Assembly (NCBI GenBank): GCA_965248535.1
Contig: CBDFJR010000005.1
Span: 1,152,001 to 1,216,000, forward strand
Reading direction: 5' to 3'
Origin: Phormidesmis sp.
GTDB lineage: Bacteria > Cyanobacteriota > Cyanobacteriia > Leptolyngbyales > Leptolyngbyaceae
Length of the DNA: 64,000 bases
A program made the position numbers and the translations under genes. The notes beneath the pieces were generated by a model. That model saw nothing but the letters and a program-made list of their open reading frames with translations, searched no databases and was not told the origin of the DNA. Below are positions 1,742 through 17,368 of the stretch, one piece after another; positions within the stretch are counted from its first letter, which is position 1; the number at the start of each line of letters is the position of its first letter.

Positions 1742-2410
1742 ACAAACCTCCTAACAAAGGTCAAACTAGATTTTAAAAGTCTTGATCTCAGACTCTGATG
1801 GGCTGCCGAGTGATTTTAGGGCACTTGAACTCGCAGGGAACTAAATCAGGTTTACTAGAAAATTTAACGTTTGCCAAGGCGGTCATTTCGACTTGACAAG
1901 TGCAGACGACTACACTTGTTGTATGTGTAGTACGAAGATCTGCTGAAGTTGAGTAAGTAAAAATACTCAAGAATCTTGAAGAACGATCGCGATTCTGCCA
2001 CCAGAGTTTAGAGGGGAGGCCAACTCTCTCTACAAGACGCTACAGCGCCGAATTCAAGTGACTCAACGCTCAAACGTGAAGTGATTTGAGCAAGAAGAAC
2101 GGTGTTCCAGACTACTTAATTCTGGATCAAGGTCAAGAATCTACAGAATTTCTGAACAATGGTTCTTTTTGGTACACCAAACAACTTATTTCTTGTTGCA
2201 GATTTATTCGTGCTATCGAATCGGTCTTTAGAGAGTTTACAGAGTTTGCGGCCCGATCGTAAGGGGGCTTTGAGCCTTTTTTCTAAAGATTTTCTGATCT
2301 TTCTAAACGGGCTTCTCTGGCTCGCAAACTCTCTGAGCTAGACAGCACCCTATCGCCAGATTTTTAAAGTCTGACCATTGACCCAACTGAGGGTGGTAGG
2401 ATCAACGCTC

Positions 2411-2486
2411 AAGCTAGGGGTGCCTAACCGGGCTGAGAACAAACCCTTAGAACCTGAGACTGGGTAATGCCAGCGAAGGGAAGCTG
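2411..2486 (+). ncRNA. TPP riboswitch
   Basis: GGGGTGCC...GGCTGAGA...ACCCTTAGAACCTGA...GGTAATGCCAGCGAAGGGA core motifs, about 20 nt upstream of thiC. Confidence 0.95.
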
Positions 2487-2506
2487 TTTATCTTGAGGAA
2501 TCGAAT

Positions 2507-13013: not shown

Positions 13014-15056
<2,043 letters not shown>

Positions 15057-15223
15057 CTATCCATCTAACTTAGTTTATTTGTACCACTAATTTTCACAAT
15101 TTGCCGTCCTTAGAAGCGCTATTATAGACTTCGTTCCATCCCTTAGTTCAGATTTTGCCGAGGGGTTGCAAAACGAGCACGATCGAGTATCCTGACTAGT
15201 AATTCCGTACTTTGGGGTGAACC

Positions 15224-15502
15224 ATGCGGGTTTGGCTGGCTTGTTTTTTAGTGTTATTTGGGCTGTCAGAACTGTTTCAGTGGATGAAGCAGCTTTCGCT
15301 GCCGCTGCCCGTCTTTATTTTGGGCGGAGCATTTTTGGCGATCGTGTCTAACTACGATCGTCGCGCCGGGTTTCCCTTCAACCAGATCAGCAGCCCGATC
15401 CGTGATCCCCAAGAAATGCCTCCGCCTGCTCAAAAAGTTAATCTGCCCCGATCGTCGTCTCCCCAAAAACCGATCTCATTTACAATTCGCAAACCAGACT
15501 GA
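15224..15502 (+). CDS. Small cyanobacterial membrane protein of unknown function
   Basis: Two hydrophobic segments and a PISFTI tail; divergent from ligA. Confidence 0.7.
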   Translation: MRVWLACFLVLFGLSELFQWMKQLSLPLPVFILGGAFLAIVSNYDRRAGFPFNQISSPIRDPQEMPPPAQKVNLPRSSSPQKPISFTIRKPD

Positions 15503-15611
15503 GGGCACTGTCGGACTATAAAGTATGCGATCGGATTGCAGTAGGTGAAGTCTAACGCCCCCCAAAAAACTCAGCATTCCAAAAAACAAAAAACTCTAGT
15601 ACAATACACCG

Positions 15612-15936
15612 CAGTGATGGAGTTGTGCCCCGAAGCCTGATCGTCCAAATCAGACTCCGAGGACTTCCATCCCTAGTTACCGTAACTAACTCAGGAGGCG
15701 TTCATGATTGTACACCGTCGGCTTTGCTATGGGATCTTGAAAGGCTGGAATCAAGATCCTGCATACAGGTTTTCCCCCAACCAAATTTCTGAGCCATCAG
15801 AGTTTTTGTCCTCTTTTAATTAACCGAGAGGACAAAAACCATGGCAGTTAGGACGATCGTTCCTAGCTCGATTTCGTTTACGGTTGAGTTGCGTTGCTCA
15901 ATCGAAAAACGTTATCGGGTGAGTGTGACGTTTTAG
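15612..15936 (+). ncRNA. Candidate structured RNA or leader with five or six hairpins and two small ORFs; family unassigned
   Basis: TACAAT -10-like box at 15600, successive stems (see finding), AGGAGG-ATG at 15704 (39 aa) and ATG at 15841 (31 aa). Confidence 0.5.
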
Positions 15937-16420
15937 ATTTGCAAGAGCGTTATCTCTTTGTGTCGTCTGGCATTGTCTGAGATGTTAGCGAATCGTATTG
16001 AAGAGTTGTGTCTCAGAATTGAGTGAGATTGCGTCAAATCAACTGGCATTTCTGAAGTGGGATGGCACCAGTGATTTGACCACAGAGTATCAAGTTGTTC
16101 GAGTGTTGCCCGGTTATCAGGTTGAACGTTCTTTAATGAAGTTCAACATTGTTCTGGGTGAGGGTTCACTAATACAAGTAGAGGAGTTGCACAACAAAAC
16201 CACCATTCAACTCTAGAAAGTTGGGGTTAGGGAGTCATCAATACCCCTCTTGGGAAATGCTCCCCAACCCCAGCATAGCAAGGCTTTGGCGGTCTCTACG
16301 GGGAACTCCACGACCCCGGAACTGACGTTTAGGAACGTGGATTCATTAAGGTGAAACGTCTCGCCCTAGATAGCTACGGTCTACAAAGTTTTTGTTGCTG
16401 CGTTGTGGGCTTCTGCCCCC

Positions 16421-16628
16421 TTGGAGAATCATCTGTAGTATTCATTGCTGCTTTGCAATTTCTAAGGTTTGATGTCTATTGTAGGGCAACTAGACGATCG
16501 CCTTTTAGCTGAAATAAGTTGGGGAACTTGGACGATCGTAAGCCGTGCCCTGTGATTCCGGCTCTCAAAGCTCGATTTCTTGATTCTGTAATAGATGATG
16601 ACGACGTGGAATTTTGACGTGAGGGATT
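16421..16628. repeat. 208-bp direct repeat, copy 1 (copy 2 at 17161..17368)
   Basis: Ungapped alignment from TTGGAGAATCATCTGTAG to GAGGGATT with scattered substitutions. Confidence 0.92.
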
Positions 16629-16650
16629 TACAGAATTTACCAATTCGCGG

Positions 16651-16914
16651 TTACAGTTTGTATGCTTCGCTGCGATGCGCGATCGCGACCACAAATACCT
16701 GCACCACTTTGTCGTCAATTGAATAAATGACTCTGTAATCTCCAACTCGGTAGCGATAATAGCCTAAATAGTCTCCCTTGAGGGCTTTAACGTTGGGGTG
16801 TGACTGGGGAGTTTGCTCTAGCTGTTGTAAACATCGGGCGATTTTCTTAGCTAGAGCTTTGTCAGCATTGACATAAGCCTTTTGAGCATCGGGATGGAGA
16901 AGAACTTCATACAT
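16651..16914 (-). CDS. RelE/ParE family toxin
   Basis: MYEVLLHPDAQK, KALKGDYLGYYRYRVGDYRVIYSID, IAHRSEAY. Confidence 0.9.
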   Translation of the reverse strand: MYEVLLHPDAQKAYVNADKALAKKIARCLQQLEQTPQSHPNVKALKGDYLGYYRYRVGDYRVIYSIDDKVVQVFVVAIAHRSEAYKL

Positions 16915-17185
16915 CGGAGCGAAGAGTTCTCCAAACTGTGTAATCGGCTTTGGGAGTTGCTTGATTTTGCTTAACTCGCTCTAACAATCCAGGAATCGCC
17001 AAAAGCTCTTGAGTTGCGGCTTCGCTTTCAGCATTTGCCAAGTAAGCCGCAAAATCAGCAAGCACCTGTAACCGTTCTGGCGACAGTTGTTTGAGCGAGT
17101 CATTAAGCTGGCGCTGTAATGCTGTCACAGATATCAAAGCCACTGGCTCTAGATCATCCATTGGAGAATCATCTGTAGTATTCAT
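16907..17185 (-). CDS. Putative antitoxin of the RelE toxin
   Basis: Upstream of and overlapping the toxin by 8 bp; LSPERLQVLADFAAYL...EATQELLAIPG motif. Confidence 0.75.
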   Translation of the reverse strand: MNTTDDSPMDDLEPVALISVTALQRQLNDSLKQLSPERLQVLADFAAYLANAESEAATQELLAIPGLLERVKQNQATPKADYTVWRTLRSDV

Positions 17186-17368
17186 TGCTGCTTTGCGATT
17201 TCTAAGGTTTGATGTCTATTGTAGGGCAACTCAACGATCGTCTTTTAGCTGAAATAAGTTGGGGAACTTGAACGATCGTAAGCCCTGTCCTGTGATTCCG
17301 GCTCTCAAAGCCCAATTTCCTGACTCTGTAATGGACGATGACGATGTGGAATTCTAGCGCGAGGGATT
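17161..17368. repeat. 208-bp direct repeat, copy 2; includes the upstream region and first codons of the antitoxin
   Basis: Aligns with 16421..16628. Confidence 0.92.

Follow-up and report, generated by a model that had tools for sequence, protein, structure and literature searches.

Control of a downstream Shine-Dalgarno (SD) sequence by a leader open reading frame (ORF) is known from translation attenuation, as in the ermC and cat leaders, and from coupling by unfolding. In the ~0.7-kb insertion sequence IS200 an RNA stem-loop blocks the ribosome-binding site and a hairpin lies near the left end, and hok/sok is a type I toxin-antitoxin system with an mRNA that shows mok-hok translational coupling. 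Here we describe a repeated gene cassette with a folded leader in 64,000 nucleotides of Phormidesmis sp. DNA (GenBank assembly GCA_965248535.1, contig CBDFJR010000005.1, positions 1,152,001 to 1,216,000 of the forward strand). This whole stretch is called the window, and its positions are used below. Positions 15600-15936 had been interpreted from the letters alone as an unassigned multi-hairpin RNA with two coupled micro-ORFs, either a structured non-coding RNA (ncRNA) or a leader-peptide switch (the original prediction). The region is almost certainly the leader and the frameshifted start of a repeated gene for a 123-amino-acid (123-aa) protein, in a decayed copy of the cassette. We consider it rather probable that the whole represents a promoter and leader through which translation of this main gene is coupled to that of a short upstream ORF (ORF1).

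The repeat nature of the stretch, which the original prediction had missed, was apparent from searches of the genome with the window sequence. A query covering 15560-16000 returned 22 matches, 17 of them long (the window copy included), and with 15300-16700 as query the 17 places spanned about 15556/15567 to 16212/16296 at 86-100% identity. The resulting cassette runs from the promoter to a 3′ hairpin (15566..16271, plus strand; ~705 bp). In 16 of the 17 copies an ATG equivalent to that at 15841 opens a single ORF, of 123 aa in 15 copies and 124 aa in one. The window copy is a pseudogene, interrupted by three small insertions of 2 nt at ~15930-31, 1 nt near 15991 and 1 nt near 16008. The first of these, which is missing from the 16 other copies in the genome and from RNA-library contigs of relatives, puts a TAG in frame and leaves an N-terminal fragment of 31 codons (15841..15936, plus strand). 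A C-terminal fragment, seen as a 72-aa ORF (15998..16216, plus strand), aligns to residues ~56-123 of intact copies from ...SELSEIASNQ on.

To this set were added copies from other genomes of the genus, giving 72 copies from 8 genomes, of which 71 were distinct and 67 had leaders that were aligned. The ORF measures 123 aa in 65 of the distinct copies, 124 aa in one and 121 aa in one, and is broken in four, including the window copy. Thus the supposed second micro-ORF ("ORF2") is a fragment, 16 of the 17 copies in the genome and 67 of the 71 in total having an ORF of 121-124 aa from the same ATG. Homologues with one continuous ORF that is frameshifted here, an outcome the original prediction had itself named as counting against it, are what was found. 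Over the 65 intact copies, the pairwise ratio of nonsynonymous to synonymous differences (pN/pS) was 0.20, compared with 1.18 and 2.17 in the wrong frames. Judged by these substitution patterns, the 123-aa protein is real and under purifying selection.

The region folds well (15600-15940, z-score (z) -4.4 against shuffles on the plus strand) and no known protein family matches, as might be expected of a free-standing structured ncRNA. The minus strand scores equally well, however (z -4.6), so that folding energy alone shows only that the region is rich in inverted repeats, and in 67 of 71 copies the stretch continues unbroken into a gene under purifying selection, which contradicts this explanation. 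No predicted terminator-like site separates the leader from the main ATG, the sole same-strand prediction (15846-68) lying inside coding sequence, and the leader is always accompanied by the gene apart from truncated copies. The element TAGGA/TCCTA (15849-53 and 15861-65) and the long interrupted stem of the original prediction both fall within the coding sequence of the 123-aa gene. We regard a free-standing ncRNA as very improbable.

The gene was present in all 8 genomes of the genus, with 4-21 matches each, and in none of 33 other genomes sampled alongside. Among 401 sampled genomes of the class, matches were confined to two genomes of the genus (G000 and G001) and one of another family (G119). 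Within the family of G119, 2 of 57 genomes matched, both of one genus: G119 itself with one copy, and G428 with one intact and two partial or frameshifted copies. These 4 copies, whose protein is ~46-50% identical to the nearest relatives searched, are referred to below as those of the second genus.

All features of the leader lie on the plus strand. A promoter-like region (15577..15605) consists of TTCCAA at 15577-82, a 17-nt spacer and a -10 box, TACAAT, at 15600-05; the box reads TA[C/G/A]AAT in all 67 aligned leaders. It is followed by H1 (15613..15674), a long interrupted 5′-terminal hairpin with a minimum free energy of -18.9 kcal/mol, in which GATGGAG (15616-22) and TTCCATC (15665-71) enclose an inner stem, CTGAT (15637-41)/ATCAG (15649-53), with a hypervariable 7-nt loop (15642-48). 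The next hairpin, H2 (15672..15695), has stems CCT/AGG and AGTT(A)/(T)AACT and a hypervariable loop (15680-86), and its 3′ arm overlaps the SD of ORF1. The palindrome TAGTTAC-C-GTAACTA, reported at this place, is present at 15674-88, but in this exact form only in the window copy; AGTT/AACT is constant and the middle hypervariable. The SD and ORF1 (39 codons) occupy 15693..15823, with AGGAGG at 15693-98, the ATG at 15704 and a TAA stop at 15821-23. ORF1 contains GGATCTTGA/TCAAGATCC, and within it hairpin H3 (15731..15760) is formed by GGGATCTTGA / TCAAGATCCT with a 10-nt loop.

At the junction with the main gene lies hairpin H4 (15802..15839). Its 5′, anti-SD arm (15802-15) is made of the last ORF1 codons, its loop holds the ORF1 stop, and its 3′ arm (15826-39) contains the SD of the main gene, GAGAGGA (15826-32). 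The perfect 13-bp stem of the original prediction, 15802-14 with 15827-39, exists in the window, but its outer 5-6 pairs are broken in many relatives; the core pairs 15808-15 with 15826-33. With these reservations on H2 and H4, the motifs first listed, including the ORFs at 15704..15823 and 15841..15936, are where they were reported. Folded alone, H4 (15800-15843) reached -18.5 kcal/mol (z -6.0), with none of 200 shuffles as good, and H3 gave z -3.1. The leader matches no named RNA family, as had been supposed: no Rfam 15 family was found for it in the whole window at the gathering threshold, in 15400-16700 at expectation values (E) up to 10 or in an intact copy of the long form (L008) at E up to 1. 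The 15400-16700 scan gave 4 chance-level matches, none within 15600-15936.

Within the genus the leader is strongly conserved. Mean column identity is 89% in the alignment of the 67 leaders (equivalents of 15590-15850), and across 15690-15763, which holds the ORF1 SD and ATG, its first 20 codons and H3 with its loop, the mean pairwise difference is 0.048. At fourfold-degenerate sites of the main gene it is 0.356, about 7 times as high. AGGAGG-N5-ATG of ORF1 is invariant in 67/67 leaders, and ORF1 is open at 39 codons in all 17 copies in the genome and in 64 of 71 overall, with 37-40 codons in 4 others and a broken or ATG-less frame in 3. Its codons 1-20 are near-invariant at all three positions (synonymous difference, pS, 0.026; nonsynonymous difference, pN, 0.033). 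H3 is paired in 99.3% of cells over the 67 copies, its changes being one-sided and compatible with G-U pairing, and the 8-pair core of H4, GTCCTCTT/GAGAGGAC, is 96-100% paired, whereas two pairs in the outer part of the 13-bp stem are broken in 24-30 of the 67. Overall, the hairpins first proposed are 95.5% paired in the genus, mainly through invariance.

The loops of H1 and H2 behave in the opposite way, diverging faster than the fourfold-degenerate sites. Mean pairwise difference is 0.53 in the H1 loop (35 variants in 71 copies) and 0.65 in the H2 loop (51 variants in 71 copies), and both are variable in the second genus too. Kissing between the two hypervariable loops was considered and rejected, since H1/H2 loop complementarity was no higher within copies than between copies; the same held for the loops against other variable parts.

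In the 4 second-genus leaders the elements follow one another as in the first genus: a -10 box leads to a 5′ hairpin and a smaller one ahead of an SD, after which come an ORF of 30-31 codons, the hairpin inside it and an SD-pairing hairpin. Two of them (L100 and L111) have TTGACA or TTGACG, a 16-nt spacer and TATACT, and the others have TATACT or TACAAT without such a -35 element. The long 5′ hairpin begins ~7 nt past the -10 box and has a variable loop of 6-7 nt. The counterpart of H2, GATA/TATC with a 7-nt variable loop, stands just ahead of GGAGG or GAGGG. In all 4 copies the upstream ORF begins MILRQLC (MIVHR[R/Q]LC in the Phormidesmis genome under study), and a 12-16-bp hairpin of unrelated sequence lies within it at the place of H3. 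In the counterpart of H4, TGTCC..TTCGCT pairs with AGCGGG.GGACA, which is the SD of a 124-aa gene, and the upstream ORF ends at the loop, leaving 19 nt to the main ATG.

A covariance model of H1 and H2, built from 16 leaders of the genus, found all 4 second-genus leaders at full length (28.8-37.5 bits, E 5e-7 to 6e-10). In the combined alignment of 26 leaders (22 + 4), which was fitted to the model's structure and so leans towards structure, 14 of 28 pairs are double-changed between the genera (37 cells). This was reached by none of 500 shuffles, and slid controls gave 0-3 pairs. The double changes affect 11 of the 20 H1 pairs (helices 1-3) and 3 of the 8 H2 pairs (helix 4). One helix segment occurs in three complementary versions among the 4 second-genus leaders alone (TACG/CGTA, TGTG/CACA and TGCG/CGCA). 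In an RNAalifold consensus of these 4 leaders, 6 of 67 pairs were double-changed and 11 involved G-U in at least one sequence. Because G-U pairs are used in this way, the helices can work only as plus-strand RNA. In G119, H3 and H4 gave z-scores of -3.0 and -3.3. We conclude that H1 and H2 are very probably real RNA helices. Of the covariation that had been proposed as a check, there was none within the genus, while H1 and H2 covary across the two genera.

These features suggest how the leader may operate. The transcript would start ~7 nt past the -10 box, near 15613, and open with H1, followed by H2 with its 3′ arm across the ORF1 SD. Terminal 5′ stem-loops can protect mRNA, and H1 may do so; H2 may set the level of ORF1 translation through its 3′ arm. 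Ribosomes translating ORF1 would cross H3 and then the anti-SD arm of H4, and would terminate within the H4 loop, 17 nt upstream of the main ATG. Because the stop sits in the loop, every ribosome that finishes ORF1 must open the H4 stem; GAGAGGA would thereby be freed and the 123-aa gene translated. When ORF1 was untranslated, the main SD would stay paired and the gene silent, so that it would be expressed only as far as ORF1 is. Tight silencing is typical of genes that do harm on read-through from outside, such as those for transposases and toxins, an analogy that is not evidence on the 123-aa protein. The main SD has the marks of leader control, in that it is preceded by a short upstream ORF with a conserved SD and start and is paired to a segment that ORF1 traverses. 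This agrees with the leader-peptide reading of ORF1 in the original prediction: SD and ATG are invariant, the stop lies in the loop of a hairpin that pairs the next SD, and the layout is kept in 64-68 of the 71 genus copies and in 4/4 second-genus copies of different sequence.

Hints of transcription came from metatranscriptome assemblies of 3 studies, which hold contigs of family members (82-99% alike) covering about 15574/15605 to 16224; such libraries may include DNA, and the contigs show neither strand nor level. Strand-switch contigs in 2 libraries (X22 and X24) join 15613 to ~15675. In X24 a 214-nt contig runs on the minus strand over 15685-15837 and on the plus strand from 15613, and an X22 contig that begins at 15613 carries 28 additional letters in front, reverse-complementary to the sequence immediately past H1. 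They are a weak hint of cDNA that ended at ~15613 and was self-primed on the terminal hairpin, which fits a 5′ end 7-8 nt past the -10 box. The start predicted near 15612 finds weak backing in two libraries, but six contigs of X20 extend further upstream, to ~15564. Depth in the RNA libraries was zero beyond ~16255 and in 15512-15542, and is uninformative on transcript ends because the copies have different flanks, which could not have aligned.

Besides the lean of the alignment and the limits of the RNA-library contigs, several results weigh against the coupled-leader reading. A promoter scan of 15000-17000 gave no sigma-70-like site at threshold. By energy alone H1 (z -1.9) and H2 (z -0.3) are weak, and three H1 pairs are unpaired in 12-28 of the 67 copies under the supplied register; in our own reading the basal pairs could be regained by shifting the register by one base. 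No covariation was detected among the 67 leaders, the 3 double-changed pairs (5 cells) being within the range of slid controls, and the RNAalifold covariation term was -0.98. The cross-genus signal represents one deep split with only 4 second-genus sequences. A covariance model of H3 and H4 found 2 of these 4 leaders, misaligned, and was excluded from the counts, so that helix replacement in H3 and H4 is read from separate folds and not from a single alignment. Codons 21-34 of ORF1 show a pN/pS of 0.62, and the number of stop-containing copies (1 of the 67 that have no indel there) does not differ significantly from the 2.6 expected from column frequencies. Because the openness of ORF1 is not significant and its variable half has this ratio, evolution gives no proof that it is translated. 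RNAalifold also proposed a long-range pairing of 15611-29 with the ORF1 start region in the 67 leaders; it was not adopted, because the cross-genus counts favour the local H1.

The conservation of 15690-15763 exceeds what coupling alone needs, as does that of the 10-nt loop of H3. Both could be explained if the invariant leader were mainly an operator or sensor, with a protein (for example the 123-aa product), a small RNA or a ligand binding 15690-15763 or H1/H2 and setting ORF1 translation, and the overlap of the H2 3′ arm with the ORF1 SD would suit such a role. In the second genus, however, the stem and loop of H3 are wholly different, so that a binding site would need to have changed together with its partner; no partner was identified, and no Rfam riboswitch or leader family matches. 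Control of this kind, which is compatible with coupling, seems to us unlikely as the leader's main function.

The 123-aa protein belongs to a sizeable family of orphans. Of 420 candidates from a word-indexed search, 414 proteins passed E <= 0.001; the best 120 of the 414 are 123-130 aa long and 84-100% identical, and the matches, where named, are "hypothetical protein" of Phormidesmis. An exhaustive search of cluster representatives gave 14 at E <= 0.001, among which the useful distant ones were P0123, P0124 and P0125 (48-52% identity); P0130 (2642 aa) and P0134 (tandem RVT_1 pieces) were dropped as repeat artefacts. The DNA loci around P0123, P0124 and P0125 were not found in scans of the genome collection. 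The protein had no match in Pfam and NCBIfam (both at E up to 1), PDB sequences, PHROGs or PADLOC, and for the 39-aa ORF1 peptide Pfam and NCBIfam gave nothing beyond one chance match. Single-sequence folding was poor (predicted local distance difference test, pLDDT, 35), whereas AlphaFold2 on a 25-sequence alignment gave a model with pLDDT 88.7 and a predicted template modelling score of 0.81, in which a 30-residue helix separates three strands from a further three or four (mixed beta/alpha). Foldseek found nothing for this model at E <= 0.001 in PDB and BFVD. The best VIA-align wide score (Z 4.6) was under the tool's stated noise level, and the best ESM Atlas score (0.91) fell to an unnamed cluster and was unusable.

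Several observations bear on the way in which the cassette has spread. In a midpoint-rooted FastTree phylogeny of the 71 copies, 16 of the 17 from the genome under study form one clade. Homology between the window locus and 3 relatives ends at 15500-15507, with no copy in the 860-1500 bases covered beyond that point in each relative, and at another locus (L003) the right flank alone is conserved; neither locus yielded a clean empty site or an exact insertion junction. Long-form copies begin TAAC and the element ends ..CTAAC, while the 5′ border varies between copies. The cassette closes with a hairpin (16223..16271, plus strand; GGGGTTAGGGAG ... CTCCCCAACCCC) that is not followed by a T run. 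A search of the genome for TTAGGGAG-N(8-45)-CTCCCTAA gave 8 occurrences, each at a cassette 3′ end; the hairpin of the window copy is a one-base variant outside this pattern. Flanks differ between copies, the sole shared part being an optional non-coding left module of ~330 bp that starts TAACTACTATTTCTGCC; it stands upstream of 8 of the 17 cassettes and is nearly missing from the copies of relatives.

In its behaviour the cassette resembles a selfish or mobile unit: copies are dispersed with unrelated flanks, the site of the window copy is empty in three relatives, 16 of the 17 copies form one clade, presence is patchy in two genera of different families, and some copies have decayed. There is also a sign of stability, one copy (L026 locus) being orthologous in 5 species, and the genome-specific clades could instead stem from gene conversion between copies. 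One may speculate that the cassette is a novel type of self-propagating minimal gene unit, whose protein promotes spread or retention (as a small recombination or mobility factor, or an addiction factor), whose leader silences the gene when ORF1 is not translated and whose H1 and H2 loops serve as tags that mark each copy for regulation or recognition, but we consider this a long shot.

Dispersal with unrelated flanks, the empty site in 3 relatives, the single clade of 16 copies, the confinement of the 3′ hairpin to cassette ends and the occurrence in the genome of Y1 transposase genes, of which one lies ~170 bp past a cassette 3′ end, would also be expected if the hairpins were DNA signals for recombination or transposition of a small mobile element, like the subterminal hairpins of IS200/IS605-type elements, with ORF1 incidental. 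But H1-H4 are internal, not terminal; they are placed exactly around two SDs and a stop codon, and their G-U pairs would be A-C mismatches on the other strand. No terminal inverted repeats or target duplications were common to the two copies examined, and no sequence likeness was found between cassette ends and Y1 loci; PF01797 (Y1) genes occur elsewhere in the genome. The cassette protein has no Y1 or other Pfam match, and the orthology in 5 species of at least one copy also speaks against such signals. We judge this explanation distinctly unlikely and prefer to regard the hairpins as parts of a leader RNA.

Several other elements were seen in or near cassettes. The Y1 (IS200/IS605-type) ORF just mentioned, G000:C5:1265296-1265631 (+), neighbours the cassette at C5:1265797-1266469, whose 5′ end adjoins tRNA-like sequence. 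The ~330-bp module is exemplified by G000:C5:1068890-1069225 and lies before cassettes at 7 more places, with a partial solo copy at G000:C2:2140243-2140385; it holds AAAT[C/T]AGGGAG, which is complementary to the cassette 3′ end CTCCCTAAC. At G000:C2:1675289-1677556 a cassette is split just ahead of the -10 box by a ~1.26-kb insertion with inverted-repeat ends (GGCACCTCGA... / ...TCGAGGTGCC). A ~725-bp repeat without an ORF of at least 90 aa is found at G000:C5:44779-45878 and 7-8 more places (8-9 copies, six of them 96-99% alike), several copies lying 1.6-4.4 kb upstream of cassettes. In G002 a ~170-bp repeat resembling a miniature inverted-repeat transposable element (MITE) follows the cassette 3′ end directly (L026:1898-2070), and it has at least 35 matches in G007.

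Elsewhere in the window, a thiamine pyrophosphate (TPP) riboswitch (RF00059) at 2406-2498 (+) was the sole Rfam family to pass, with 64.5 bits against a gathering threshold of 54.3. Downstream of the cassette, a 211-bp direct repeat (16418-16628 and 17158-17368, plus strand; 91% identity) flanks minus-strand ORFs 16651..16914 and 16907..17185, which from the ORF list alone resemble a toxin-antitoxin pair; a third partial copy of the repeat lies at G000:C2:442293-442421.

For annotation, what looked like an ncRNA with two micro-ORFs becomes a decayed member of a repeated gene family that has a conserved regulatory leader. The window copy is an ordinary pseudogene, and the novelty is at the level of the family, in its leader RNA and its orphan multicopy gene. 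The former is a cis-regulatory leader outside Rfam, in which an upstream ORF, a stop in the loop and a paired SD are kept in two cyanobacterial genera while the helices change, and it offers a clean natural case in which translational coupling could be tested in cyanobacteria. The latter, with 414 database members and neither a Pfam nor a fold match, behaves like a selfish element without a recognisable transposase. The available parts of the literature on Phormidesmis repeats and transposition, and on cyanobacterial leader-peptide coupling, hold no account of the cassette family or its leader.

Compared with known systems, the leader is most readily set beside those of the ermC/cat type, since in both a short ORF that has an SD of its own precedes the gene, and the downstream SD is locked by a 5′ arm inside that ORF. 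It differs from them in having no evident stalling signal or alternative hairpin pair and two additional conserved 5′ hairpins, and in preceding an orphan gene, not a resistance gene. IS200 resembles the cassette as a unit of ~0.7 kb with one small gene, many dispersed copies, a hidden SD and a hairpin with which the transcript begins, but the cassette protein is not of the Y1/HUH type (it has no Pfam match, PF01797 included), and the cassette has an upstream ORF. Like hok/sok, it would have a highly folded mRNA whose main gene is, as proposed here, under an upstream frame, and it exists in several chromosomal copies, some decayed; its product, however, is a 123-residue protein with a confident mixed beta/alpha model and no PADLOC match, not a membrane peptide of <60 aa, and no antisense RNA came to light, no search aimed at one having been made. 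MITEs and small cyanobacterial repeats are likewise sub-kilobase units in tens of copies with lineage-specific clades, but the cassette is protein-coding, as its pN/pS indicates, and the two copies examined share no terminal inverted repeats or target duplications. The cassette thus falls outside IS200/IS605 elements, as it has no Y1 transposase, outside MITEs, as it codes for a protein, and outside type I toxin systems, and appears to work like known leaders in which an upstream ORF governs an SD held in a hairpin.

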